Shown here: positions 11,754 through 26,739 of the stretch, in pieces | Layout of the letters: every line of letters starts with the position of its first letter | Numbering within the stretch: the stretch's first letter is position 1 | Assembly (NCBI RefSeq): GCF_000179635.2 | Contig: NC_014833.1 | Coordinates: 600,001-632,000 of the forward strand | Length of the DNA stretch: 32,000 bases | Direction of reading: 5' to 3' | Source of the DNA: Ruminococcus albus 7 = DSM 20455 | GTDB taxonomy: Bacteria; Bacillota; Clostridia; Oscillospirales; Ruminococcaceae | Program-made: the position numbers and the translations under genes | The notes under the pieces: model-generated | Databases searched by the model: none | Seen by the model: only the letters and a program-made list of their open reading frames with translations | What the model was told of the DNA's origin: nothing

Positions 11754-11782
11754 TTGACTAATGTACGCCTCCGTGTTATAAT
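11754..11782 (+). promoter_or_regulatory. Near-consensus promoter for the hyd/nfl/hyp cluster.
   Basis: TTGACT lies at 11754-11759 and TATAAT at 11777-11782, separated by 17 nt and about 100 nt upstream of the first gene. A 7-bp hairpin (11806-11812 / 11819-11825) sits in the leader. Confidence 0.65.
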
Positions 11783-11879
11783 GATACTGTTGATATTAAT
11801 AGTATAAGGCACAGTATCGTGCCTTTATAAAACATAATATTTTTCACGGTGACTGACACCGATAGAAAGGAAGATAGCT

Positions 11880-12125
11880 ATGCAGACAAGAGTAGCGGTT
11901 ATTTCTATCATTATTGAAGACGTCAGCTCTGTGGAAAGCATAAATTCCATACTGCACGAGTTCGGTGAATTCATATTCGGCAGGATGGGAGTGCCATACC
12001 GTGCCAAGGGCGTTAACATAATAAGTATCGCCATTGATGCACCGCAGGATAAGATAAATACCCTTGCGGGCAAGATAGGCAGATTAAACGGTGTTACTGC
12101 CAAGACGGTATATTCAACGGTCTGA
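11880..12125 (+). CDS. TM1266-family ACT-like small protein (putative iron-only hydrogenase system regulator).
   Basis: The 81-aa protein reads MQTRVAVISIIIED...SINSILHEFGEFIFGRMGVPYRAKGVNIISIAIDAP.DKINTLAGKIGRLNGV. This is the family known to be linked to hydE/F/G clusters. Confidence 0.75.
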   Translation: MQTRVAVISIIIEDVSSVESINSILHEFGEFIFGRMGVPYRAKGVNIISIAIDAPQDKINTLAGKIGRLNGVTAKTVYSTV

Positions 12126-12327
12126 CCCGGGATAAACGGGAAAGACCCCTTACAAAAAATATAAGCATAGGTTTCCTCCTGATGCCGAAAATTATTTTGA
12201 GGCAGAAGCAGAAAGACACAAGCGACCGCGGATAAATATCGGGGCGCGGCAGGATATGGGGTATATATACTTTATGTTTTGCGTGAGCTCACGGGATAAG
12301 TGTATCCGCAGGTCTTTATTGGCGTGT

Positions 12328-12375
12328 AAGCCCGTGTCCTCTGTTTCGGGGGATACGGGCTTTATTTATGCTTTT
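12328..12375 (+). terminator. Intrinsic terminator / attenuator hairpin in the hydF leader.
   Basis: A 12-bp stem pairs AAGCCCGTGTCC (12328-12339) with GGATACGGGCTT (12351-12362), with one G.U pair. It is followed by TATTTATGCTTTT and ends only about 30 nt before the hydF start. Confidence 0.6.
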
Positions 12376-12405
12376 CACATTATGAGCGAAAAGGAGAACT
12401 GGAAC

Positions 12406-13596
12406 ATGGGACTAAACGATACACCTTCGGGTGAGAGGGTGCACATAGGCTTTTTCGGACGCAGGAATGCAGGCAAATCAAGCGTGGTAAACGCTTTTAC
12501 AAATCAGGAGCTGGCGATAGTATCGGATACTCCGGGCACGACTACCGACCCTGTATATAAGGCGATGGAGCTTCTGCCGATGGGACCTGTAATGATAATT
12601 GACACCCCCGGTTATGATGATGAGGGTAAGCTTGGTGAACTCAGGGTCAGAAAGACCTCGGAGGTGCTGGGCAGAACAGACTGCGCTGTACTGGTGACCG
12701 ATTGTACAAGAGATCTTGATGAGAGCGAAAAGCAGCTGATAAAGCTGTTTGACAGCAGGCGCATACCATATGTCATAGCAAAGAATAAATCCGATCTTCT
12801 GGATGATATCCCTGCTGCAGATGAAAAAGAGATCTATGTCAGCGCACTTAATAATACTATGATACATGAGCTGCGCGAGAAAGTAGCTCAGCTTTCGGCA
12901 TACAAAGAGCAGAACGTTCCGCTTGTGGGCGACCTTATCGGTGAGGGCGGACTTGCAGTGCTTTGCATACCCATAGACAAGGCAGCACCCAAGGGCAGAT
13001 TGATACTTCCTCAGCAGCAGGTGATCCGTGACCTGCTGGAGCATGGTGCGGCAGCACTTACCTGCCGTGAGACCGAGCTCAAGAGTTTCCTGGAAAAGCT
13101 GAACCCAAAGCCCGATGCGGTAATAACCGACAGTCAGGTGTTTGCACGCGCGAATGCTGATACTCCGCCTGATATAAAGCTTACATCTTTTTCCATACTC
13201 ATGGCGAGATACAAGGGATTCCTTGCACCTGCTGTGCGCGGCGCAAAAGCGATAGACAGCCTTAAAAACGGCGACAGGATACTCATTTCCGAGGGCTGTA
13301 CTCACCACCGCCAGTGCGAGGATATCGGAACGGTGAAGCTGCCGAAGCTGCTGAAAAAATACACAGGCAAGGATTTCAGGCTGGAGTTTTCCTCAGGCAG
13401 GGAATTTCCCGATGACCTTACCGACTACGCACTTGTTATACACTGCGGAGGCTGTATGCTCAATGCAAGGGAGATGAGCAGCCGCATAATGACTGTTGAG
13501 GAAGCAGGTGTACCTGTTACCAATTACGGTATCGCCATAGCTTATATGAACGGTATCCTTGAAAGAAGTCTGGAGTTGATCCCCGATATTATGTGA
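12406..13596 (+). CDS. hydF: [FeFe]-hydrogenase H-cluster maturation GTPase HydF.
   Basis: GTPase motifs are present: G1 GRRNAGKSS, DTPG and NKSD. The C-terminal FeS motif is EGCTHH...IHCGGC. The ATG at 12406 follows AAGGAGA. The longer ORF from 12256 was rejected. Confidence 0.9.
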   Translation: MGLNDTPSGERVHIGFFGRRNAGKSSVVNAFTNQELAIVSDTPGTTTDPVYKAMELLPMGPVMIIDTPGYDDEGKLGELRVRKTSEVLGRTDCAVLVTDCTRDLDESEKQLIKLFDSRRIPYVIAKNKSDLLDDIPAADEKEIYVSALNNTMIHELREKVAQLSAYKEQNVPLVGDLIGEGGLAVLCIPIDKAAPKGRLILPQQQVIRDLLEHGAAALTCRETELKSFLEKLNPKPDAVITDSQVFARANADTPPDIKLTSFSILMARYKGFLAPAVRGAKAIDSLKNGDRILISEGCTHHRQCEDIGTVKLPKLLKKYTGKDFRLEFSSGREFPDDLTDYALVIHCGGCMLNAREMSSRIMTVEEAGVPVTNYGIAIAYMNGILERSLELIPDIM

Positions 13597-13607
13597 GGTG
13601 ATGTGAT

Positions 13608-14114
13608 ATGAGTGAAAAATTTGTATACGATAAGTCTTCACCCGATGCTGATAAGTATACCGAGGTGGATAAGTTCCTTCAGTTGACAGAACGCTACTGT
13701 AAAAAAGGCTTAGGTGCGATCGCAAGCAAAGTTGGTTCAAAGCTTGGTCTTAAAAACAGTTCCAGACCCTATTCTTCTTTGCAGCGAGCAGTGAAGATAA
13801 TCAATGCCGATGGCATCGAAGGCGTATATGATGATCTCATGCACTGCACACGCGTTGAGCGATGCGATATATTCATTGGTAAAAGCTATCTGTTCCGACA
13901 GAACAATTTCATGTGCCGCATTAAGGATATAAAAAAATGTTATATCCTTAAGGAAGAAAGCGGTGATGATATCCTTTACCATTGTTATGCGGATATCAGC
14001 GATGAAGCAGGAGATGAAACTCTTGAATTAAGAAAACTCAGTGCCCTGAAAGTACAGAGGCTGCTGCAGTTTGATGAGATAAGAAAGCTGATAGGCATAG
14101 AAGAACAGGAGTAG
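13608..14114 (+). CDS. Hypothetical 168-aa protein embedded between hydF and hydE.
   Basis: The ATG at 13608 follows GAGGTGA and lies 11 nt after the hydF stop. The gene is on the same strand as its neighbours. The protein has six Cys and matches no family I recognise. Confidence 0.6.
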   Translation: MSEKFVYDKSSPDADKYTEVDKFLQLTERYCKKGLGAIASKVGSKLGLKNSSRPYSSLQRAVKIINADGIEGVYDDLMHCTRVERCDIFIGKSYLFRQNNFMCRIKDIKKCYILKEESGDDILYHCYADISDEAGDETLELRKLSALKVQRLLQFDEIRKLIGIEEQE

Positions 14115-14157
14115 ACATACGACAGGGAGATAAAATAATTAAAGACAGGGTGAGATC

Positions 14158-15195
14158 ATGAGCAAGGCTCTTATAGATAAGCTGAATAAAGAGAAGCATC
14201 TCGAAAAAGAAGAATGGGTGACCCTTTTATCTGGGTATACCGACGATGACAGGGCTTACGCCGCGGGTATCGCGCGTGAGATAAGTACCTCGCGTTTCGG
14301 AAATAAGATATTCATTCGCGGTATCGTGGAATTTTCAAACGTCTGTAAGAACGACTGCTACTACTGCGGAATAAGACGTTCCAATACCAACGTTCAGCGG
14401 TATCGGCTTACCCCCGATGAGATACTCGACTGCTGTGACGAGGGCTATGAACTTGGTTTCCGTACCTTTGTTTTGCAGAGCGGTGAGGATAAGAGCTATA
14501 CTAACGATACCCTCTGTGATATCGTCCGCAGGATAAAGGCAGCTCACCCCGACTGCGCTGTTACCCTTTCTCTCGGTGAACTGACCTATGAGGAATACAA
14601 GGCTTTACGCGAAGCAGGTGCTGACAGATATCTTCTGCGCCACGAAACAGCCGACAAAGCCCATTATGAGAAACTTCACCCCGCCGAGATGTCATGGGAT
14701 GACCGCATGGAATGTCTTAAATATCTGAAAGAACTGGGATACCAGACAGGTGCAGGCATCATGGTAGGTTCCCCCTATCAGACTATGGAGTGTATCGCTG
14801 AGGATATGCTTTTCTTTGAAAGCTTCAAACCCGAGATGATAGGCATAGGACCATTCCTGCCCCACAAGGATACGCCTTTCAGGGACGAACCCAAAGGCAG
14901 TTACGAATTGACACTTTTCCTGCTGAGTCTGTGCAGGATACTTCTCCCCGATGTTCTCCTGCCCGCAACTACCGCCCTCGGCACGATACGTCCCAACGGC
15001 AGGGAGGAAGGTGTAAAGGCAGGCGCTAACGTTATAATGCCCAACCTTTCCCCAACAGCGGTGAGAAAGAAATATATGCTTTACGATAACAAGATATGCA
15101 CAGGTGACGAAAGCGCACAGTGCCGCGGATGTCTTGAAATGAGAATGAAGTCCATCGGCTACGAGGTAGCTGTATCAAGAGGTGACCATATATGA
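14158..15195 (+). CDS. hydE: [FeFe]-hydrogenase maturation radical SAM enzyme HydE.
   Basis: The CX3CX2C motif is CKNDCYYC. The protein has a BioB-like fold and HydE-typical length (345 aa) and sequence (...FVLQSGED...GAGIMVGSPYQT...). Confidence 0.9.
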   Translation: MSKALIDKLNKEKHLEKEEWVTLLSGYTDDDRAYAAGIAREISTSRFGNKIFIRGIVEFSNVCKNDCYYCGIRRSNTNVQRYRLTPDEILDCCDEGYELGFRTFVLQSGEDKSYTNDTLCDIVRRIKAAHPDCAVTLSLGELTYEEYKALREAGADRYLLRHETADKAHYEKLHPAEMSWDDRMECLKYLKELGYQTGAGIMVGSPYQTMECIAEDMLFFESFKPEMIGIGPFLPHKDTPFRDEPKGSYELTLFLLSLCRILLPDVLLPATTALGTIRPNGREEGVKAGANVIMPNLSPTAVRKKYMLYDNKICTGDESAQCRGCLEMRMKSIGYEVAVSRGDHI

Positions 15196-15950
15196 TAAAA
15201 TTTGCTGTATACGGAAAAGGCGGCATAGGTAAATCCACTATCGCCTGCAATATCTCGGCGGCACTGGCTGCAAAAGGTCTTACCGTCATGCAGATAGGCT
15301 GTGACCCCAAGGCGGATTCAACATCTCTCCTCCACGGCGGCGACAGGATACCTACCGTATTGGATATGACCCGCAAAACAGGCGGCAAGTTCACCCTTGA
15401 CGATGTGGTCTTCAAGACCCCAAGCGGAGTATACTGCGTTGAAGCCGGCGGACCTGTCCCGGGACTGGGCTGTGCGGGCAGAGGTATAATCAATGCCCTG
15501 GAAAGCCTTGAAAAGCTGGGTGCTTATGAGGTATACAAGCCCGATGTTGTAGTCTACGATGTCCTCGGCGATGTGGTATGCGGAGGATTCTCTATGCCCA
15601 TGCGCAAGGGCTATGCTGATAAGATATTCGTTGTCTGTTCGGGTGAGAAAATGTCCAGATATGCGGCGGCAAATATCTGCATGGCTGTTGAGAATTTCAA
15701 GGGCAGAGGATACGCTTCCCTTGGCGGCATAATACTAAACCGCAGGGGAGTACCCGATGAAGACGAAGCGGCAGAGGAGCTTGCGGCTGATTTCAATACA
15801 TCTGTCATAGGTACTCTCGACCGCAGTGAGGATATACCTCTTGCGGAAGAAATGGGCAAAGCGATAGTGGCTTCCGCCCCCGAATGTGAAACTTCAAAAC
15901 AGCTGAAAGCAATAGCCGATGCGGTATACGCTATTTGCGGAGGTGAGTGA
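15192..15950 (+). CDS. NifH/BchL/CfbC-family ATPase, nitrogenase-like iron protein copy 1.
   Basis: The P-loop is GKGGIGKST and switch I is CDPKADST. Both cluster-ligand contexts are present: GCAGRG and DVVCGGF. The start overlaps the hydE stop (ATGA). Confidence 0.9.
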   Translation: MIKFAVYGKGGIGKSTIACNISAALAAKGLTVMQIGCDPKADSTSLLHGGDRIPTVLDMTRKTGGKFTLDDVVFKTPSGVYCVEAGGPVPGLGCAGRGIINALESLEKLGAYEVYKPDVVVYDVLGDVVCGGFSMPMRKGYADKIFVVCSGEKMSRYAAANICMAVENFKGRGYASLGGIILNRRGVPDEDEAAEELAADFNTSVIGTLDRSEDIPLAEEMGKAIVASAPECETSKQLKAIADAVYAICGGE

Positions 15951-15951
15951 T

Positions 15952-17265
15952 ATGCTCAGAAAAACAGAGCTTGACCGTCCACCCGTGATAAGGCTGGGCG
16001 ATGCGCCCCGCGGTGATTTCTTCACAAGCGGACTTGAATACAATCCACCTGCAAGGGGTGTATGGAACATAGTCCATACAGGTATGCTGATACCCGAAGC
16101 ACATGAGATATTCGCCTGTGCCCAGGGCTGTCTCCGCGGTGTTATCCTCACGGCGGCTGAAATGAATGCTCTTGACCGCATGAGCTGGATATCCGTTTCC
16201 GAGCAGGATATGTTCGACGGTACGCTGGAAAGCGATGTGGTTGACGGCGTGTGTGAAATAATCGAAGGTCTGCCTTACAGACCACGCGCTGTGCTTTTGT
16301 ATCTCAGCTGTATACACCTTTTTGCAGGGGTAGATTTCGATATCATAATACGGGACCTTTCAGAAAAATTTCCCGATATAGATTTTTCGGACTGCTATAT
16401 GACCCCTACCATGCGCAAGACCATCTCTCCCGATGCTAAAATGAGGATAAGACTTTACAATGGGCTGAAGCCCCTGCCAGTAGATGAACGCTCGGTGAAT
16501 ATCATCGGCAACGACCGTGCTACCGATGAAAACAGCGAACTTGTCCGCATAATAAGGGATAATGGTTTTACTCTGAGGGATATAACCTCATGCAGGACCT
16601 ACGATGAATATCTTGATATGGCAAAGGCGGCGGTGAATATCGCTTATCTGCCTACGGCGGCGATTGGCTGTAATGAATTATCCGAGCGGTTAGGCACAAA
16701 GGCTTTGTATCTGCCTAACAGCTTTGACTATTCCGAGATACGTGCGAACATCGCAAAACTATGTGAAACTCTCGGCGTACCATGCCCCGACCTTTCGCGT
16801 GAAGAAAAGCAGGCAGAGGACGCACTTTTCTCCGCAAAAAAAGCTTTGGGCGATACTCCCGTAGCTATCGACTTCACAGCGGTAACACAGCCCTTCTCTC
16901 TGGCGAAACTCCTTTGCGAAAAAGGCTTCAATGTGAAGTATATCATAAATGATGTTCTGGGCGAGGACGGCGCCGCATTTGATGCACTGAAAACTCTCGC
17001 TCCCGATATTGAGATATACTCGGCGGTTAATGTGAATATGCTGCATTTCCCCGAGGAAGACCATGAAAAAGTCATAGCCGTGGGTCAGAAAGCCGCACAT
17101 TACTTCAACACCGACTATTTCGTTAATATAGTCCAGAACGGCGGATATTACGGCTTTACAGGCATAGCTGAGATAGCACGCCTGATAGAAGAAGCGGCAA
17201 ACGCACCAAAGGACAGGCGGACTCTTATATCACACAAGGGTATCGGCTGTGAGAGCTGTTTATAA
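15952..17265 (+). CDS. Nitrogenase component-1-type oxidoreductase subunit, NifD/NifE/BchN-like, copy 1.
   Basis: It occupies the position after the H gene. Motifs include ACAQGC and LSCIHLFAGVDFD (like the TCxxxxIGDD context). The product is 437 aa. The ATG at 15952 follows GGAGGTGA. Confidence 0.7.
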   Translation: MLRKTELDRPPVIRLGDAPRGDFFTSGLEYNPPARGVWNIVHTGMLIPEAHEIFACAQGCLRGVILTAAEMNALDRMSWISVSEQDMFDGTLESDVVDGVCEIIEGLPYRPRAVLLYLSCIHLFAGVDFDIIIRDLSEKFPDIDFSDCYMTPTMRKTISPDAKMRIRLYNGLKPLPVDERSVNIIGNDRATDENSELVRIIRDNGFTLRDITSCRTYDEYLDMAKAAVNIAYLPTAAIGCNELSERLGTKALYLPNSFDYSEIRANIAKLCETLGVPCPDLSREEKQAEDALFSAKKALGDTPVAIDFTAVTQPFSLAKLLCEKGFNVKYIINDVLGEDGAAFDALKTLAPDIEIYSAVNVNMLHFPEEDHEKVIAVGQKAAHYFNTDYFVNIVQNGGYYGFTGIAEIARLIEEAANAPKDRRTLISHKGIGCESCL

Positions 17266-17329
17266 TTCATAATTCATAATTATTGGCATTGGCGATACAG
17301 TGTCAATGATCATGAAAAAGAGGTTTACT

Positions 17330-18529
17330 ATGAAAAATGTCAGTAAGATAATACCATGCTATGCGGCGGATACTTCGGGCGTATGTTCGGCGCTGTATGA
17401 GTTTGGCGGCATGATAGTCGTGCATGATGCATCGGGCTGCAATTCCACTTATTCAACCCACGATGAACCCCGCTGGTACGATATGCGCTCGGATATCTAT
17501 ATCTCCGCGCTTACCGAGACCGATGCTATCCTCGGCAACGATGAAAAGCTTATCGAGGATATAGTCTCAGCCGCTAAAGACCGTCAGCCCGCATTTATAG
17601 CGCTGTGCGGTTCACCCATGCCCATGATGACAGGCTTCGACTACGAAGCTGTGGCGCGGGATATTCAGGGATGGACCGGTATACCGACTTTCGGTCTGGC
17701 AACCAATGGTACACGTTCGTATATCAGCGGTGCAGGTATGGCGCTTGAAGCTATTGTCCGTGAGTTCGTACATGATATGCCCAAGGAAGATTTCGACGGC
17801 ATCGCCATAAATATCATAGGTGCGACCCCCCTTGATTTCGGTCTTACGGGGGCAGTTGAAAGCATGAAGAAGCTTTACAGCAGACCTAAGATGAAAGTCA
17901 TATCCTCCATAGGCATGGGCGGCACTCTCGATGAGATACGCAAAGCAGCCTCTGCAAATGTGAATCTCGTGGTATCCTACTGCGGGCTTCCTGCGGCGCG
18001 GTATATGGAAAAGGAATTCGGTATACCCTATATCTGCGGCGTTCCCCTGGGCGATGTTGATATGATACAGGCAGGTGCTCTCAGCAGTTTTATGTATGAA
18101 ACTGCCCATGACGGCATAAGCAGAATGATGGCGGCAATGTGCCGCGGCAGAGCAACCGACGAAAAAGCCGAGCGTCTTGTCATAGGCGAGGCTGTGCTTG
18201 CAGGGTCGATAGCCTTTGAATGGTCTATAATGACCCGCCATGCGGTAGATGTTATATGTCCCCCGGATATAGATGCAGAACTTTCTCCCGATAAAAAGGA
18301 TATGCCCCTATATGCCGAGGAAGACATCAAGGCATATATCAAAGACCGCGGCATTAAGGAAGTCGTGGCAGACCCCCTGTACAAATACATCATACCCGAG
18401 GGATGCAGGCTTATCGAACTGCCCCACTTCGCTTTCTCGGGCAGATGCTTTGCAAAGGATATGAAAGATCCTACGTGTAATGACTTTCTGGATGATCTTG
18501 TACTCGCAATAAATAAGAAAAATGAATGA
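17330..18529 (+). CDS. Nitrogenase component-1-type oxidoreductase subunit, NifK/NifN/BchB-like, copy 1.
   Basis: Motifs include VHDASGC, DEPRWY and ALCGSPMPMMTGFDYE. It is a paralogue of 20588..21613. The ATG at 17330 follows AAGAGG. Confidence 0.7.
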   Translation: MKNVSKIIPCYAADTSGVCSALYEFGGMIVVHDASGCNSTYSTHDEPRWYDMRSDIYISALTETDAILGNDEKLIEDIVSAAKDRQPAFIALCGSPMPMMTGFDYEAVARDIQGWTGIPTFGLATNGTRSYISGAGMALEAIVREFVHDMPKEDFDGIAINIIGATPLDFGLTGAVESMKKLYSRPKMKVISSIGMGGTLDEIRKAASANVNLVVSYCGLPAARYMEKEFGIPYICGVPLGDVDMIQAGALSSFMYETAHDGISRMMAAMCRGRATDEKAERLVIGEAVLAGSIAFEWSIMTRHAVDVICPPDIDAELSPDKKDMPLYAEEDIKAYIKDRGIKEVVADPLYKYIIPEGCRLIELPHFAFSGRCFAKDMKDPTCNDFLDDLVLAINKKNE

Positions 18530-18541
18530 GGAGTTTTTTGA

Positions 18542-19306
18542 ATGATAAAACTGGCGATATACGGCAAGGGCGGTATAGGAAAATCCACCTGTACCGCGAA
18601 CCTCGCGGCGGCTTTCGCATCTCTTGGAAAAAGGGTGATACAGATAGGCTGTGACCCCAAGGCGGATTCTACCATAAATCTGCTGGGCGGAACACCTGTA
18701 ACCCCTGTTATGGACTATATGCGCGACCGCGACGAAGAACCGACTTCCATCGAGGAGATATCTCAGATAGGTTTCGGCGGTATACTCTGTATCGAAACAG
18801 GCGGACCCACCCCGGGTCTCGGCTGTGCGGGCAGAGGTATCATCACCACATTTTCCCTGCTGGAAGAACTTGAACTTTTTGAGAAGTTCAAGCCCGATGT
18901 GGTTCTCTACGATGTCCTCGGTGACGTGGTATGCGGAGGATTTGCCGCCCCTATAAGAGAGGGCTACGCCGACAAGGTGCTGATAGTTACCTCGGGCGAA
19001 AAGATGGCGTTGTATGCCGCTAATAATATCAACAAAGCGGTGAAGAATTTTGAGGACAGAAGCTATGCCAAAGTACGCGGTATAATCATGAACCGCCGCG
19101 CCGTTGAAAACGAGGAAGAAAAAGTCCGCGCTTTTGCCGAGTCAGCAGGTCTTGACGTTGCGGCTGATATCCCGCGTTCGGCTGATATAATAAAGTACGA
19201 GGATATGGGCAAGACCGTCATCGAGGGCGACCCCGAATGTGAAACTTCAAAGCGCTTCTTCGACCTCGCCAAAAAACTCATAGCGGAGGAAGAACAGGAT
19301 GATTGA
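18542..19306 (+). CDS. NifH/BchL/CfbC-family ATPase, nitrogenase-like iron protein copy 2.
   Basis: It has [23 protein letters not shown] and DVVCGGF. By eye, roughly half of its positions are identical to copy 1. Confidence 0.9.
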
Positions 19307-20591
19307 CGCATACTACATCACCTCCGCCGACCTCGCCGCAAAGGGTTTTGAAAATACCCCCGACGAACTCATGAGCCACAAGCATATGATATATTCGTCC
19401 CCCGCAACACTGGATTTCAATTCTCCCGGTGCAAAGGGATTCGGCGTAAAAAGAGCGGGTCTTGCCATACCCGGTTCTGTGATGCTTCTGGTAGCCCCCG
19501 GCTGCTGCGGAAGAAATACCGCACTTCTCAACGAACTGGGATATAACGAAAGATTTTTCTATCTGCTTCTCGATGATACCGATATCGTCACAGGCAGACA
19601 CCTCACAAAGATACCAAAGGCGTGCAGAGAAGTCTGCGAAAGCCTTGACTATACACCCACAGCAGTGATGATATGCATTACCTGTGTTGACGCACTTCTC
19701 GGTACGGATATGGAACGTGTATGCCGCAAGTGCGAGGACGAAACGGGCGTACCGACTGTCCCCGCATATATGTATGCGCTTACAAGAGAGAAGCGTCTGC
19801 CCCCCATGGCAGGAGTGAGAAAGTCGGTATACTCGCTGCTGAAGCCGCAGAAGAGGATATCCAACGAATGTAATATACTCGGATATTTCAGCCATGTTCA
19901 CGATGACAGCGAGCTGTATGACCTTCTTCACAGTGCGGGCATAAAGAAAGTTCGTGAGCTTTCAAGGTGCAGTACAATAGATGAATACCACGAGCTTTCA
20001 AGGGCGAATTTCAACCTTGTGATAAATGCCGAAGCACGCTATGCCGCACAGGATATGGAAAAGCGTCTGGGTATACCCTTTATCGAGCTGACGAGAATGT
20101 ACAGGCTTGATAAGATACGCAATCAGTACCGTCTGCTTGGTCAGGCGCTGGGTGCAGAATTTGATGATGATAAATATTACGATAAAGCCAAAACCGCAGT
20201 AGATAACTTCATATCAAAACACGGAAAAATATCTGCGGCGGTGGGCGAGTGCGTAAATGCTGACAGCTTTGAACTTGCCCTTGCACTTACAGAGTACGGC
20301 ATAAAGGTCAGCGAGATATACGGCACGGTGGGGGAGAGAAACTTCGTATTCATAAAGAAACTTGCTCAGGTATCCCCCGATACCCGCATATTCTCGAACC
20401 TTTCGCCTACGATGCTGAATTATGAGAGAAAGACCGATATAGATGTTGCGATAGGTGTTGACGCGGGATATTATCACCCCGACCTGCCCTGCGCACAGTT
20501 CAATACCGAGGAACAGCCTTTCGGATATGAGGGCGTTGAACGCCTGCTTGCAGAACTTGACGAAGCACTTGCAAAGGAGGAGAAGAAATGA
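19299..20591 (+). CDS. Nitrogenase component-1-type oxidoreductase subunit, NifD/NifE/BchN-like, copy 2.
   Basis: Motifs include VAPGCCG and [15 protein letters not shown]. The product is 430 aa. The gene overlaps the upstream H gene by 8 nt. Confidence 0.7.
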
Positions 20592-21613
20592 AAAAGTTTT
20601 TGAGATATATCTCTCCCCTTGCCCCCGATGATTCAGGTGCCTGTTCGGTGCTTTACGAACTTGGTGGTATCACCGTTATATGTGATGCGGGCGGATGCGC
20701 GGGCAATGTCTGCGGCTTTGATGAACCCCGCTGGTTCACTAAAAAATCAGCGCTGTTCAGTGCGGGACTCCGTGATATGGACGCTATCCTCGGCAGAGAT
20801 GACCGCCTTGTTGCAAAGCTTGCCCTTGCACAGCAGCAGCTTGAAAGGGACTTCACCGCCATCGTCGGCACACCTGTCCCCGCAGTCATTGCCACCGACT
20901 ATAAAGCCCTTGAACGCATGGCTGAAAAGAAAACAGGCGTACCCTGTATCACTGTTCAGACCGACGGCACAAAGCTTTACGATAAAGGCGAGGAAGAAGC
21001 CTACCTGCGTTTGTTCAAAACATTTGCAAAGGAAAAACTCCCCACCCGGAAAGGCACTGCCGCCGTCATAGGCGCTACACCTCTCGATACGGGCTTCATC
21101 ACCGCCGATACCATAGTATCGCAGATAAAGGCTGAGGGCTTTGAGGAAGTCAAATGCATCGGCTTCGACAGCGGACTTGACGAAGTAAAAAACATCTCCC
21201 GCTTTGAGAAGATATTCGTCATATCGCCTGCTGGCATCAGGGCAGGAAATTACCTTAAAGAAAATTTCTCCCTTGATGTTGAAGTGCACGGCTGTCCCCT
21301 GCCAAAGGAGTATACCGATAAGCTGAAAGACCTAAGAACAGGCGGCAGAACTCTTATCATACACCAGCAGATGACAGCAAACGCTGTCCGCGATATCATA
21401 GGCGATTCGACCTGCGGAACGTTCTTCATGCTTGATAAGACCGCCGCACAGGAAGGCGACTTCCACATAAAGGACGAGGAAGACCTCGCCGAAAAGGCAA
21501 AGGGCTTCGACCTTATAATAGCCGATATCAGCCTTAAACGCGCCCTCCCCGAGTTTAAGGGCGAATGGTTCGACCTGCCCCACTTTGCAGTTTCGGGCAG
21601 AACTTTCCAATAA
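20588..21613 (+). CDS. Nitrogenase component-1-type oxidoreductase subunit, NifK/NifN/BchB-like, copy 2.
   Basis: Motifs include ICDAGGCAGNVCGFDEPRWF and a C-terminal DLPHFAVSGR (copy 1 has ELPHFAFSGR). The start overlaps the upstream gene (ATGA). The product is 341 aa. Confidence 0.7.
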   Translation: MKKFLRYISPLAPDDSGACSVLYELGGITVICDAGGCAGNVCGFDEPRWFTKKSALFSAGLRDMDAILGRDDRLVAKLALAQQQLERDFTAIVGTPVPAVIATDYKALERMAEKKTGVPCITVQTDGTKLYDKGEEEAYLRLFKTFAKEKLPTRKGTAAVIGATPLDTGFITADTIVSQIKAEGFEEVKCIGFDSGLDEVKNISRFEKIFVISPAGIRAGNYLKENFSLDVEVHGCPLPKEYTDKLKDLRTGGRTLIIHQQMTANAVRDIIGDSTCGTFFMLDKTAAQEGDFHIKDEEDLAEKAKGFDLIIADISLKRALPEFKGEWFDLPHFAVSGRTFQ

Positions 21614-21626
21614 CAGATAGAAGAAG

Positions 21627-23939
21627 GTGAGCAACATAAAAACTGTCAATATACGTGTTTTCGGCATAGTACAGGGCGTGGGTTTCCGACCTTTCACCGC
21701 TGTCACCGCCGAAGAACTCGGCATCAGCGGAACAGTGGCGAATAAGGGTTCCTATGTGGATATCTATGCCACAGGTGAAGAAGCTTCTCTTGCAGCCTTT
21801 GCCGACAGGATAAGACATGATCCGCCCGAACGCGCCATGGTGCTTGAGGTGGAAGTCACCGATATTGAATATACCGAATTTTCGGGCTTTGAGATAATTG
21901 AGAGCGAAAAGGAGATGGGAGATATATTCGTTTCCCCCGATATCGCCACCTGCCCGAAATGCCGTGCTGAACTGTTCGATAAAACGGACAGAAGATATCT
22001 GCACCCCTTTATAAACTGTACCCAGTGCGGTCCGCGTCTGACTATACTGGAGTCTATGCCCTATGACCGCGAACGCACTACCATGAAAGAACACCCCATG
22101 TGTGAAAAGTGTTCTTCAGAGTACCACGCCCCCGCAACACGCCGCTATGACGCACAGCCCGTGTGCTGTAATGAATGCGGACCCGAGGTCTATATAGTCG
22201 GCACCGATATAAAGGGCGGTGAAGCTATAACACATCTGCGCCGCGCTATAATGGAAGGTAAGATAGCGGCTGTAAAAGGCATAGGTGGTTTCCACCTTTG
22301 CTGTGATGCCCACAACGAGGAAGCCGTATCGCGCCTTCGCGGACTTAAAAAACGTCCCGCAAAGCCCTTTGCAGTCATGATGCGTGATATGGATACTGTG
22401 CGCAGACAGTGCCATGTCAGGGACGGTCAGGAAGAATACCTAACAGGCTGGCAGAAGCCCATAATGCTTCTTAAAAAGCGCAGCTGCTGCACTCTCAGCG
22501 AGAAGATAGCCCCCGACAATACCACCGTGGGCGTTATGCTTCCCTATGCCCCTGTGCAGATGCTATTATTCGATTATCCCGATGATGTTGATATGACAGA
22601 CTGCCTTGTAATGACAAGCGGCAACGTCAGCGGCGCACCAATATGCCGCAGTGACGAAGATGCCCTCAAAGAGATAGGCAGCTTCTGTGACCTCATGCTT
22701 TCCCACAACAGGAAGATACTACTGCGTGCAGACGACAGCGTGTGCGACTGGCTTTTCGATAAGCCCTATATGATACGGCGCTCCCGCGGTTTCGCGCCCC
22801 TGCCCGTCATGCTGAAAAACAAGGCTGACAAACAGGTGCTTGCCGTAGGCGGCGAGCTGAAAAACAGCTTCTGCATAGCAAGAGGCGACCTGCTTTATCC
22901 CTCGCCCTACGTGGGAGATATGGCGGATATCCGCACCGTAAAAGCCCTGGAAGAAAGCACCGAGAGAATGTGCGGGCTTCTCGAAACGACCCCCGAGGTC
23001 ATCGTATGCGATACCCACCCCAAGTACAACACCGTCCGCGTGGCTGAGGATATCGCAGAAAAACGGGGCATACCCCTGATAAAGGTACAGCATCACTACG
23101 CCCATATACTTTCCTGCATGGCTGAAAACGGCTTTGACGGAAAGGTGATCGGTGTCAGCTTCGACGGCACAGGCTACGGCGATGACGGCACTATATGGGG
23201 CGGCGAATTTCTCCTCTGCGATTACCGCGGCTATAAAAGGGTCGGAAGTATACGTCCATTTATGCAGACAGGCGGCGACCTCTCATCAAAGGAGGGCTGG
23301 CGCATAGCCTCGGCACTTATACGCGATGCTTTCGGCGACGGCGGAGAAGTCCTCTGTCAGCGTCTTGGCATATGCGACGGCATGGAGTATAAACTGCAAA
23401 AGGCTATGGCTGAAAAGGGTCTCAACTCTGTTAAGTCCACAAGCTGCGGCAGACTTTTCGATGCCGTGTCCGCTATACTCGGTATAAAGAGGACATCCAC
23501 TTTTGAGGGCGAAGCTTCCGTAGCCCTTATGTGCGAAGCTGAGCGCTGTTTAGCAAAGCGCCCCGAGATATCTGAGAATTACCGTACTCCCGAAAAGCTG
23601 ATAAAGTATCAGGACGGTTTTGTAACTCTCTGTACAATGGCACTTGCGGCTGATATAGCCGAGCGTAAACTCGCCTGCTGTCAGCCCGATGTGCTTGCCT
23701 ATACCTTCCATGCGGTGCTTGCTGATATGGTAACAGCCGCCTGCGAAAAGATAAGCGAGGACACAGGCATAAAGACCGTTGCACTCAGCGGCGGAGTTTT
23801 CCAGAACCGTCTGCTGACAAAGCTGTGCCACGAAAGGCTTACAGCCAAAGGTTTCACCGTACTTCTGCACAGCCTGATACCGCCCAACGACGGCGGCATA
23901 GCTCTGGGACAGGCAGCGTATGGTATATATAATTCATAA
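21627..23939 (+). CDS. hypF: Carbamoyltransferase HypF.
   Basis: An acylphosphatase domain (VQGVGFRP) is followed by two zinc-finger pairs (CPKC...CTQCGPR, CEKC...CNECGP), a YrdC-like domain and a Kae1-like domain. The product is 770 aa with a GTG start. Confidence 0.95.
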   Translation: MSNIKTVNIRVFGIVQGVGFRPFTAVTAEELGISGTVANKGSYVDIYATGEEASLAAFADRIRHDPPERAMVLEVEVTDIEYTEFSGFEIIESEKEMGDIFVSPDIATCPKCRAELFDKTDRRYLHPFINCTQCGPRLTILESMPYDRERTTMKEHPMCEKCSSEYHAPATRRYDAQPVCCNECGPEVYIVGTDIKGGEAITHLRRAIMEGKIAAVKGIGGFHLCCDAHNEEAVSRLRGLKKRPAKPFAVMMRDMDTVRRQCHVRDGQEEYLTGWQKPIMLLKKRSCCTLSEKIAPDNTTVGVMLPYAPVQMLLFDYPDDVDMTDCLVMTSGNVSGAPICRSDEDALKEIGSFCDLMLSHNRKILLRADDSVCDWLFDKPYMIRRSRGFAPLPVMLKNKADKQVLAVGGELKNSFCIARGDLLYPSPYVGDMADIRTVKALEESTERMCGLLETTPEVIVCDTHPKYNTVRVAEDIAEKRGIPLIKVQHHYAHILSCMAENGFDGKVIGVSFDGTGYGDDGTIWGGEFLLCDYRGYKRVGSIRPFMQTGGDLSSKEGWRIASALIRDAFGDGGEVLCQRLGICDGMEYKLQKAMAEKGLNSVKSTSCGRLFDAVSAILGIKRTSTFEGEASVALMCEAERCLAKRPEISENYRTPEKLIKYQDGFVTLCTMALAADIAERKLACCQPDVLAYTFHAVLADMVTAACEKISEDTGIKTVALSGGVFQNRLLTKLCHERLTAKGFTVLLHSLIPPNDGGIALGQAAYGIYNS

Positions 23940-24413
23940 TTAATAATTGCGCGGCGGGGTTTTGTGAATGGCAAAGCTTTCATGCTGCGGACGACAGTAT
24001 GTTAAGGACCAATTTGACAACAGCAAGCTACATTTATCGGCTTGCTGCAATAAACGTAAAGAACCCAAACAAAACAATATGACCCTCACAGCAAGGCAAG
24101 AGCCCACTGCCGACGCAGTCGCAGTTAGCGCCCTCTTGACCGAGCACTGGGGGTATGGGGGGTTCCCCCATAAGGAATCATTATCATACCACAACAAAGC
24201 TTAATTTGAAGCCCAAAATAAAGTAATATAAACCAACAGCAAGGCAAGAGCCTGAGCGCCCCTTGAGCATAGTGAGCTGCGGGAGCGTAGCGACCAAAGC
24301 GAACGCCGCTCAAGCCCTAACCGGGCGCGAAGGTCTTGCCGCGCACAACATCATCAAAGCTGATGTTTGGAGTATGAGGGGCTTTGCCCCTCATTTAGAA
24401 TAGGAGGATAAAT
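23940..24413. repeat. Non-coding spacer with degenerate direct repeats and GC-rich palindromes.
   Basis: A roughly 45-nt unit, (G)CCCAAA.AAA..AATAT.A.C..ACAGCAAGGCAAGAGCC, occurs at 24063-24105 and 24211-24253. CAAAGCT occurs three times. Hairpins lie at 24021-24047, 24154-24172 and 24375-24392. Confidence 0.6.
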
Positions 24414-24623
24414 ATGTGTGTTGGATTATCTGCAAAAGTAGTAAATGTTAAGGACGGTACAGCCCTTATAGATGCAAACGGCGCAAAGCGCGAGGTCAGC
24501 GCCGATCTGCTGGAAGATCTCGAACCAGGTGATTATGTAATGGTGCACGCAGGTGTGGCTATCGCAAAGATCACCGAGAGCGACGAGGACGAAGCATTTG
24601 ATGTAATGGAGGGTCTGCTGTGA
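24414..24623 (+). CDS. hypC: Hydrogenase maturation chaperone HypC.
   Basis: The N-terminus is MCVG, carrying the essential Cys2. The protein is a 69-aa OB-fold and matches HypC/HupF-family sequence throughout. Confidence 0.9.
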   Translation: MCVGLSAKVVNVKDGTALIDANGAKREVSADLLEDLEPGDYVMVHAGVAIAKITESDEDEAFDVMEGLL

Positions 24624-25666
24624 ACGAACAGGCTAAAAAGGCAAGGGATATAATCGTTAACTATAAGGGAAGACCCCTGCGTATAATGGAGGTCTGCGGC
24701 ACCCATACCCATGAGATATTCAAACTGGGTCTGCGCAAGCTGCTGCCCGAAAATGTTGAACTCATCTCGGGACCCGGATGTCCCGTATGCGTAACTCCCG
24801 TGGGATTTATAGATGAAGCTATATGGCTGGCACTGGAGAAAGGCTGTGTTATAACCACATTCGGTGACCTTATCCGTGTACCGGGTACGGAGATGTCTCT
24901 TGCAGGTGCAAGGGCTAAGGGCGCACAGGTACGCCCCGTTTATTCCCCGCTGGATGCAGTTGAAATGGCAAGACAGAACCCCGATGAACAGATAGTTTTC
25001 TTAGCTGTCGGCTTTGAGACAACTACCCCCTCTGCCTGTCTTGCGGCTGAAACAGCAAAGAAGGAGGGTCTCACTAACTTCTCTCTGCTGACCGCAAACA
25101 AGACCATGCCCAATGCCTATGCGGCACTTGAAGGCAGTGCTGATGCTTTCCTCTATCCGGGTCATGTAAACGCGATAACAGGTACAGCTATATGCGAGGA
25201 ACTTAAAGCCAAAGGCGTATCGGGTGTTATCGCAGGCTTTACCGCAAGCGAACTTCTCACCGCCCTTGCAGTGATACTGAAGAACGCCGAAAAGGACGAG
25301 CCTTTCTTTGTCAACTGCTACCCCCGCGTAGTTAAGCCCGAGGGCAATCCGCCCGCTCGGAAGCTTATTGAAAAGGTAATGGAGCCCTGCGATACCGAAT
25401 GGCGCGGTCTTGGCGTTATCCCCATGTCGGGCATGAAACTCCGCGATGAGTACGCCGATTTCGATGCAAGAAAGAAGTACGCTATGCCCGAGATAAAGGG
25501 CAAGCCCAATCCTGCCTGCCGCTGTGGAGAAGTCCTGCAAGGCAAATGCAAACCCTGTGACTGCAAGGTATTCGGCAAGGTATGTACCCCCGAACACCCC
25601 GTAGGTGCCTGCATGGTATCTGATGAGGGTGCCTGTGCGGCTTATTATCAGTACGGCGGAGTATAA
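24620..25666 (+). CDS. hypD: Hydrogenase maturation factor HypD.
   Basis: Motifs include CGTHTH, GPGCPVCV and C-terminal Cys-rich motifs (...PACRCG...CKPCDC...GACMVS.EGACAAYY). The GTG start overlaps the hypC stop. Confidence 0.95.
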   Translation: MNEQAKKARDIIVNYKGRPLRIMEVCGTHTHEIFKLGLRKLLPENVELISGPGCPVCVTPVGFIDEAIWLALEKGCVITTFGDLIRVPGTEMSLAGARAKGAQVRPVYSPLDAVEMARQNPDEQIVFLAVGFETTTPSACLAAETAKKEGLTNFSLLTANKTMPNAYAALEGSADAFLYPGHVNAITGTAICEELKAKGVSGVIAGFTASELLTALAVILKNAEKDEPFFVNCYPRVVKPEGNPPARKLIEKVMEPCDTEWRGLGVIPMSGMKLRDEYADFDARKKYAMPEIKGKPNPACRCGEVLQGKCKPCDCKVFGKVCTPEHPVGACMVSDEGACAAYYQYGGV

Positions 25667-25731
25667 GGCTGTATCTTAATAAACGAAATAACATTTCAGC
25701 GCCTGCGGGCGCACAAAGGAGTAAATACAAT

Positions 25732-26739
25732 ATGTCAGAAAAAACAGTTACCCTCGCCCACGGTGCGGGCGGAAAGCAGACCTCGGAACTTATCGACAGA
25801 GTTTTCAAGGCACATTTCTCAAATCCTCAGTTCACAGCAGATGATGCCGCTGTGCTGAATATCGGCGACGGCAGACTTGCCATGTCCACCGACGGCTTCA
25901 TCGTTTCCCCTTTTGAATTCAACGGCGGAAACATCGGCAAACTTTCCATCTGCGGAACAGTCAACGACCTTTCCTGCATGGGTGCGAAGCCTCTGTACCT
26001 CACCTGTGCTTTCGTCATCGAAGAGGGATTCCCACTTGACAAGCTTGAAGAGATTGCCGCTTCTATGGAAAAGACCGCGGCTGAGGCTGGTGTCAAGATA
26101 GTCGCAGGCGATACCAAGGTAGCAGGCAAGGGTCAGGTGGATAAGATATTCATCACCACCACAGGCATAGGCAGGATAATGGATAACGCCGATACCTCGG
26201 GCACATACGCTAAGCCCGGCGATGCTGTCATAGTTACGGGCGATGTGGGCAGACACGGCTGTACCATACTTCTCGCCCGCGATGAATACGGCATAGATGC
26301 CAATGTTGACAGCGACTGCGCACCTCTCTGGGGCACAGTTGAAAGCCTGTATACCGTCACCAATGATATCCACACTATCCGTGACGCTACCCGCGGCGGC
26401 GTTGGTACAGTCCTCTATGAGATAGCCGAGCAGAGCAATGTAGGTGTTCGCCTGAACGCAGAAGATATCCCCGTTGACCCAGCTGTCAAGGGCGTTTGTG
26501 GTATGCTGGGTCTTGAACCCCTCTACCTCGCCTGTGAGGGCAGACTTGTAATAATCGCTCCCAAGGACAAAGCACCTGCACTTGTTGAAAAGCTCCGCGA
26601 GGGCAAGTATTCAAAGAATGCCGCTATCATCGGTGAGATAACCGCCGAAAACGCAGGCAGAGTAGTCATGGAGACCGAGATAGGCGCCCAGACCATGCTC
26701 CCTCAGCCCGGCGGCGAACTTCTGCCGCGCATATGCTGA
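25732..26739 (+). CDS. hypE: Hydrogenase maturation carbamoyl dehydratase HypE.
   Basis: The protein has a PurM-like fold. Its N-terminus is LAHGAGG and its C-terminus is the PRIC motif. Confidence 0.95.
   Translation: MSEKTVTLAHGAGGKQTSELIDRVFKAHFSNPQFTADDAAVLNIGDGRLAMSTDGFIVSPFEFNGGNIGKLSICGTVNDLSCMGAKPLYLTCAFVIEEGFPLDKLEEIAASMEKTAAEAGVKIVAGDTKVAGKGQVDKIFITTTGIGRIMDNADTSGTYAKPGDAVIVTGDVGRHGCTILLARDEYGIDANVDSDCAPLWGTVESLYTVTNDIHTIRDATRGGVGTVLYEIAEQSNVGVRLNAEDIPVDPAVKGVCGMLGLEPLYLACEGRLVIIAPKDKAPALVEKLREGKYSKNAAIIGEITAENAGRVVMETEIGAQTMLPQPGGELLPRIC

Follow-up and report, generated by a model that had tools for sequence, protein, structure and literature searches.

Three described assembly systems come close to a gene cluster of Ruminococcus albus 7 that lies in a 32,000-nucleotide stretch of its genome (contig NC_014833.1, positions 600,001 to 632,000 of the forward strand). 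This whole stretch is called the window, and coordinates are given in its numbering. The first is the canonical HydEFG system of [FeFe] hydrogenases, in which HydG is, to our knowledge, regarded as indispensable for the CO and cyanide ligands of the active site. The second is the HypABCDEF system of [NiFe] hydrogenases. In it, HypF and HypE convert carbamoyl phosphate into cyanide, HypC and HypD assemble it on iron, and HypA and HypB act in nickel insertion. The product of HypCD is Fe(CN)2CO and that of HydG is Fe(CO)2(CN)(Cys); the precursor of the H-cluster, the [FeFe] active site, requires more CO for each iron than is present in the product of Hyp. The third comprises nitrogenase (NifH, NifEN, NifDK) together with DPOR BchLNB, CfbCD and methylthio-alkane reductase.

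The cluster of R. albus 7 has parts of all three. As in the canonical HydEFG system, a TM1266 gene stands at its head, the HydE and HydF proteins are true members of their families, and HydA clients are encoded in the genome. However, no protein reaches the HydG cut-off, and ten genes of other families occupy the operon position of hydG. As in the [NiFe] system, HypF, HypC, HypD and HypE are full-length and have all signature residues needed to make cyanide and to hold Fe(CN)2CO, but HypA, HypB, the protease and the [NiFe] large subunit are missing and the hyp genes are joined to a nitrogenase-like trio of genes. The likeness to the nitrogenase systems consists of two NifH-like ATPases with a P-loop and [4Fe-4S] cysteines, and of two alpha/beta pairs of component-1-like subunits, which have conserved cysteines at the site of the cluster between subunits. 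The differences are scores far below every Nif, Bch or Cfb cut-off, the lack, in weak alignments, of a cysteine corresponding to NifD Cys275 or NifE Cys250, the linkage to hyd and hyp genes, and the fact that these genes never occur with HydG. We know of no earlier description of a nitrogenase-like system with a hyd/hyp linkage, and no published description of this operon was found in the literature searched. A motif-based note on HydG-less maturation in Clostridium acetogens does not mention nitrogenase-like genes (PMC9431212).

A first-pass annotation of this DNA had reported two incomplete maturase sets, namely HydE and HydF without HydG, and HypC, HypD, HypE and HypF without HypA, HypB, a protease or a large subunit. 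Both sets are parts of one 15-kb operon, Rumal_0542 to Rumal_0556, which is an unbroken run of plus-strand genes from 11880 to 26739 with mostly short or overlapping junctions. The order is TM1266, hydF, an open reading frame of 168 residues, hydE, nflH1, nflD1, nflK1, nflH2, nflD2, nflK2, hypF, a spacer, hypC, hypD and hypE. Between the two maturase sets there are thus six nitrogenase-like genes (15192-21613), which the annotation had left unweighed; nflH1D1K1 is called trio 1 and nflH2D2K2 trio 2. The operon suggests that the active site of [FeFe] hydrogenases can be built in a way not yet described. It probably supplies R. albus 7 with the CO- and cyanide-bearing iron precursor of this site without HydG and without the cleavage of tyrosine.

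The identities of the Hyd and Hyp proteins were judged against curated equivalog cut-offs. HydF (Rumal_0543, 12406-13596), the GTPase scaffold of H-cluster maturation, scores 549 bits against TIGR03918 (cut-off 325.6) and has intact GKS, DTPG and NKSD motifs and a C-terminal CTHH...HCGGC. An AAGGAG ribosome-binding site precedes the gene and upholds the start at 12406 that had been proposed for it. The radical SAM maturase HydE (Rumal_0545, 14158-15195), whose gene overlaps nflH1 by 4 nucleotides, scores 571 bits against TIGR03956 (cut-off 254.6) and has the radical SAM motif CKNDCYYC. In the second set, the carbamoyltransferase HypF (21627-23939) has all four domains and scores 750 bits against a cut-off of 466, and the Fe(CN)2CO chaperone HypC (24414-24623), with Cys2 present, scores 61.5 against 48. 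The Fe-S scaffold HypD (24620-25666; 413 bits against 193) has its signature motifs CGTHTH, GPGCPVC and GFETT, and the cyanide-forming dehydratase HypE (25732-26739; 426 against 252) ends in PRIC.

The genome of R. albus 7 is closed. It has 4.48 Mb with no N in five replicons of 3,685,408, 420,706, 352,646, 15,907 and 7,420 bases. A profile search of all replicons found no HydG. The highest match to the HydG profile TIGR03955 falls short of the cut-off of 312 bits, at 179 bits. It is ThiH, which scores 508 bits against TIGR02351 and is encoded within a thi operon. Profile searches of the whole genome found neither HypA nor a HycI-type maturation protease, only weak GTPase matches to HypB (30 bits, cut-off 121), and no match to PF00374 or PF00346 that would mark a [NiFe] large subunit. 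The gaps that the annotation had seen in both sets are therefore gaps of the whole genome, while the members that are present are intact. HydE and HydF are each encoded once, in the window operon.

The genome search gave four HydA-like genes. The one at C1:3332653-3334437 keeps all three H-cluster motifs. The others comprise a group-B-like gene on the second replicon, a sensory type with a PAS domain and a divergent gene. According to PMC6776011, two [FeFe] hydrogenases serve R. albus 7 as an outlet for reducing power, and H2 was produced by the pure culture from which RNA was sequenced (RNA-seq). Since HydG is absent and H2 is made, R. albus 7 is a HydG-less organism with functional [FeFe] hydrogenases.

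Relatives of the operon were sought by an alignment scan with NflD2 in one genome per species, which gave at least 575 matching stretches, and the best 80 of these, all from other species, were compared. They belong to Ruminococcus, other Oscillospiraceae, two Clostridium species, Lachnospiraceae, Synergistaceae and Lentisphaeria. The constant core of these 80 loci consists of TM1266, trio 1, trio 2 and HypF, HypC, HypD and HypE, and the recurrence of the same gene order in other species argues that the arrangement is not due to chance. In most of these loci TM1266 is the first gene of the operon. Many have an adjacent hydE and fewer an adjacent hydF, and hydG was never found within 10 kb. The genes hypFCDE are always contiguous with trio 2 and share one operon with trio 1. 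Besides the order of the window, there is an alternative order H2D2K2-HypFCDE-H1D1K1, and a compact one, H2D2K2-HypFCDE-TM1266-D1K1-HydF, that has a single NifH-like gene.

Fifty operon-bearing genomes of several phyla, from Ruminococcus, Oscillospiraceae, Clostridium, Lachnospiraceae, Synergistaceae and Lentisphaeria, were searched. HydG was found in none of the 50, HydE in 49, HydF in 48 and HydA in all, HydE being encoded elsewhere in the genome when it is outside the operon. The expectation of the first-pass annotation that absence of hydG would go together with linked hypCDEF was thus borne out. A [NiFe] large subunit was not found in 45 of these genomes, and the remaining five have only a short match of group-4 type. 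HydG was also absent from all 30 genomes of the genus of the window that are at least 90% complete.

The pattern was examined further in a family sample of 121 genomes, one per genus, and in a class sample of 400 genomes. HydG is present in 53 of the 121 and in 246 of 399, respectively. Seven genomes of the family sample have HydE and no HydG, namely G000, which is R. albus 7, and G021, both with the full operon, and G024, G026, G031, G059 and G099. Precisely these seven have homologs of NflD1, at 43-60% identity, whereas all 53 genomes with HydG lack them. In the class sample NflD1 (at least 37% identity) occurs in 11 genomes, none of which has HydG. One genus of this sample is split, four species having NflD1 without HydG and three having HydG without NflD1. 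In neither of these two unbiased samples do NflD1 and HydG ever occur together. With NflD2 as the query, a search at the level of the family showed the long operon only in the genus of the window; the wider pattern emerged with NflD1.

Trio 1 consists of nflH1 (15192-15950), nflD1 (15919-17265), which encodes an alpha-type subunit and is the gene that tracks the absence of HydG, and nflK1 (17300-18529), which encodes its beta-type partner. Trio 2 consists of nflH2 (18542-19306), nflD2 (19299-20591), which is always found beside hypFCDE, and its partner nflK2 (20588-21613). NflH1 and NflH2 are NifH-like ATP-dependent reductases, with 281 and 298 bits, respectively, to PF00142, a P-loop GKGGIGKS, and two [4Fe-4S] cluster cysteines (Cys94 and Cys130 in NflH1, Cys95 and Cys131 in NflH2). 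The P-loop and these cysteines are invariant across the homologs. The score of NflH1 lies under the cut-offs for NifH, CfbC and BchL. NflD1 and NflK1 match PF00148. The four component-1-like proteins all fall far below the Nif, Bch and Cfb equivalog cut-offs, their best scores against the NifDK and NifEN models being 27-72 bits where the cut-offs are 486-654. Their invariant cysteines are Cys67, Cys71, Cys131 and Cys444 in NflD1, Cys47 in NflK1, Cys69, Cys70, Cys126 and Cys129 in NflD2, and Cys37 and Cys42 in NflK2. Among solved proteins, NifE comes nearest to both NflD1 and NflD2, with a weak score for NflD1, and its cluster cysteine aligns with Cys131 of NflD1 and Cys129 of NflD2.

A third NifH-like gene of R. 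albus 7 (C1:2742550-2744347, minus strand) is 47-50% identical to nflH1 and nflH2. It has a weakly component-1-like neighbour and constitutes a separate nitrogenase-like system in the same genome.

The genomes with HydG indicate what the nitrogenase-like block stands in for. Among 18 HydG-bearing relatives, hydE adjoins hydG in 13, and in 10 of these 13 the order is TM1266-hydE-hydG. The nitrogenase-like block therefore occupies the place of hydG behind TM1266 and hydE. In the HydE tree, proteins from genomes with the nitrogenase-like system are interleaved with those from genomes with HydG, the branches with good support require four or more changes of label, and the HydE of the window is placed among proteins that work with HydG. 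This shows that HydE has not turned into a different enzyme and is, by phylogeny, an ordinary HydE. The simplest account is that the nitrogenase-like system took over the task of HydG several times in evolution, or the reverse.

A short form of the operon lacks Hyp. It consists of TM1266-hydE-H1D1K1 and an ABC importer, has no second trio, and was found in eight genomes (loci L109, L110, L111, L113, L117, L118, L119 and L121 in G099, G031, G024, G026, G514, G294, G523 and G059, respectively), none of which has HydG. The order TM1266-hydE-H1-D1-K1 is seen in G024, G026, G031 and G099, and hydF is included in some; in G059 the trio and the importer are on one contig and hydE is on another. In the three fully annotated operons the trio is followed by genes for a binding protein, a FecCD permease and an ABC ATPase. 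The binding proteins have lipoprotein signal peptides, which marks the system as a real importer, and their solved relatives bind differing ligands. The ABC ATPase of L110 is fused to a TM1266-like domain. HydA genes are present in G024, G031 and G099. Searches of five short-form genomes (G024, G026, G031, G059 and G099) found neither HypD nor HypF. In the tree of the D and K subunits, NflD1 proteins of long and short forms make up one clade with an SH-aLRT support of 100, which excludes NflD2 and the distant paralogs described below. Long and short forms are interleaved within it and the short forms are basal.

ThiH was considered as a general stand-in for HydG and was rejected, because G024, G031 and G099 have no match at the level of ThiH.

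Two genomes of the class sample have only distant paralogs, with D subunits that are 29-31% identical. At L126 (G378) and L127 (G433) these trios are accompanied by an ABC importer of the same kind, with no hyd genes nearby. Both genomes have HydG, and the broader nitrogenase-like family therefore has another function.

The short form bears on the proposal of the first-pass annotation that the Hyp module supplies the unit normally made by HydG. Part of the proposal stands, in that HydG is indeed absent where Hyp is linked, but HydG is absent also from short forms without HypD and HypF, and Hyp therefore cannot be a general substitute for HydG. The constant partner of HydG loss is trio 1, which the proposal had left out. 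Hyp seems to be a feeder of the trio-1 route rather than the HydG substitute itself.

Expression of the operon can be followed in the RNA-seq table of PMC6776011, from which the locus tags are taken and in which the products and order of Rumal_0539 to Rumal_0561 match the window. In the H2-producing pure culture Rumal_0543 to Rumal_0556 are evenly expressed, at 32-125 units, and remain unchanged in co-culture (fold 0.97-1.22). For the TM1266 gene Rumal_0542 (11880-12125; 111 bits to TIGR03959, cut-off 60.8), which encodes a putative ACT-domain regulator of operons for [FeFe]-hydrogenase maturation, the level is about ten times that of hydF, with a drop from about 530 to about 54 units. This fits a promoter-like site upstream of it (11754-11782, plus strand; TTGACT-17-TATAAT, extended TG, 11 of 12 matches) and a terminator-like hairpin (12328-12362, plus strand; 16-bp stem and T-rich tail) in the 280-nucleotide leader of hydF, across which the drop occurs, and suggests attenuation control at the hairpin. 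Assembled Logan RNA contigs were used as a hint to the operon ends; such contigs can neither rank expression nor prove a single transcript. The contig from a pure-culture run begins at 11808 and ends at 26671, and that from an animal faecal metatranscriptome, of a relative about 95% identical, begins at 11802 and ends at 26737.

In the route proposed for R. albus 7, cyanide would be made from carbamoyl phosphate by HypF and HypE and held on iron by HypC and HypD, Hyp being most likely the donor of the cyanide- and CO-bearing iron. Trio 2, with its NifH-like reductase and NifE-like D2K2 pair always next to Hyp, would process or receive the Hyp unit, and might also provide low-potential electrons for additional CO. 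The reduction of CO2 to CO needs electrons well below the potential of HypD, for which PMC6886295 invokes coupling to ATP "in analogy to the iron protein of nitrogenase"; a NifH-like reductase joined to hypFCDE would fit this requirement. Trio 1, the universal element, would then convert the unit into what HydE normally gets from HydG, and HydE and HydF would finish the [2Fe] subcluster and pass it to the HydA proteins. In the short form the ABC importer replaces trio 2 and Hyp. The importer and the trio-2/Hyp module share a role in the operon and would either deliver the same intermediate to trio 1 or supply what D1K1 needs for a cofactor of its own. We give about an even chance to the reading that a tyrosine-independent route to the H-cluster precursor has the ATP-driven NflH1D1K1 as its core and is fed by HypFCDE with trio 2 or by the importer.

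Several observations weigh against the supply of the H-cluster precursor by this operon. All support for a link between the operon proteins and HydA is genomic and transcriptomic. The ligand ratios differ between the Fe(CN)2CO of HypCD and the Fe(CO)2(CN)(Cys) of HydG. In the five short-form genomes without HydG, HypD and HypF, the source of CO and cyanide is unexplained and Hyp is not essential. Hyp could serve a [NiFe] enzyme in the five long-form genomes that have a group-4-like subunit fragment. Most of the 50 operon-bearing genomes are metagenome assemblies of unreported completeness. The Fisher values for the exclusion of NflD1 and HydG, 2e-5 and 3e-9, overstate it because the genomes are related and not independent, the class sample representing about eight genera. 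Finally, the expression of the operon does not shift with the level of H2.

The operon might instead serve a new nitrogenase-like enzyme, for which it would build an organometallic cofactor of its own, with D2K2 as the scaffold, D1K1 as the catalyst and HydE, HydF and Hyp as its maturases, so that the link to [FeFe] hydrogenases would be indirect or absent. The two trios mirror the scaffold-plus-enzyme logic of NifEN and NifDK, both D subunits come nearest to NifE among solved proteins, and distant trios with an importer occur without nearby hyd genes in genomes that have HydG. Nevertheless, this explanation is unlikely. It leaves the maturation of HydA in all 50 HydG-less genomes unexplained, and accounts neither for the exclusion between HydG and NflD1 nor for a block in the slot of hydG behind TM1266; moreover, the single-copy HydE is phylogenetically the same enzyme as in genomes with HydG.

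A further explanation, which we consider quite unlikely, is that trio 1 alone replaces HydG, whereas HypFCDE and trio 2 serve another client or the cofactor of D1K1 and donate no ligand to the H-cluster. It agrees with the interleaving of long- and short-form NflD1 in one clade and with the retention of HydA, HydE and HydF in the five short-form genomes that have no HydG, HypD or HypF. However, 45 of the 50 long-form genomes have no other known client for Hyp, hypFCDE is always contiguous with trio 2 in the operon of trio 1, and HypE and HypF make cyanide, a ligand that the H-cluster requires. There is little doubt, lastly, that the locus is not merely a shared maturase depot with HydG and a [NiFe] hydrogenase encoded elsewhere, as the first-pass annotation had allowed, because the genome is closed with no N, its top HydG-like gene is ThiH, and the [NiFe] large subunit, HypA, HypB and the protease were not found.

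The remaining features of the operon touch the supply of the H-cluster precursor less directly. The 168-residue reading frame Rumal_0544 (13608-14114, plus strand) encodes a Cys-rich protein of unknown function, is expressed, and has no match in Pfam or NCBIfam. Its homologs occur only in the closest relatives, as one to five diverged tandem paralogous copies (L013, L014 and L015), and it is outside the conserved system. At its position the transcript of a relative has 2094 additional bases. The spacer between hypF and hypC (23940-24413, 474 nucleotides) is crossed by the RNA contigs and contains a 46-nucleotide stretch (24099-24144) that is found again elsewhere in the genome. A copy with three mismatches lies on the opposite strand of another RNA contig, 5.4 kb long. 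This stretch looks like a small dispersed repeat. The transcript of a relative lacks 128 nucleotides of the spacer (24129-24258). An Rfam search of the operon and its leader gave no family match, and a search for fusions between the TM1266 and nflD1 genes found none, the two genes merely abutting or overlapping.

The divergent HydA-like gene of R. albus 7 encodes 561 residues with altered H-cluster motifs. It lies outside the window at C1:646419-648402, 20 kb 3' of hypE, and after it comes a second TM1266 paralog, with 59% identity to that of the window. In six related Ruminococcus loci (L047, L049, L051, L058, L060 and L062) an ortholog, 67-76% identical and at about 18400-21300 of the locus, begins 1.5-3 kb after hypE. 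The 561-residue protein may have a sensory or regulatory role linked to the operon.

How an active enzyme is made without the full maturase set has been raised as an open question for archaea and protists (PMC11216029). Here the same puzzle is met in a cultured, biochemically studied, H2-producing model rumen bacterium with a closed genome and a defined, expressed candidate operon of 15 genes, in which the question is directly testable. If the proposed route is correct, the Hyd, Hyp and Nif-like assembly families of gas-processing metalloenzymes would be joined in one pathway, and organometallic chemistry of the hydrogenase type would take place on a scaffold of the nitrogenase type. It would also offer a tyrosine-free route to the production of hydrogenases in other hosts, and many of the "nifH" genes counted in surveys of the rumen and gut would not belong to nitrogenases. 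In the form with the importer, gut bacteria might then salvage a precursor from their surroundings.

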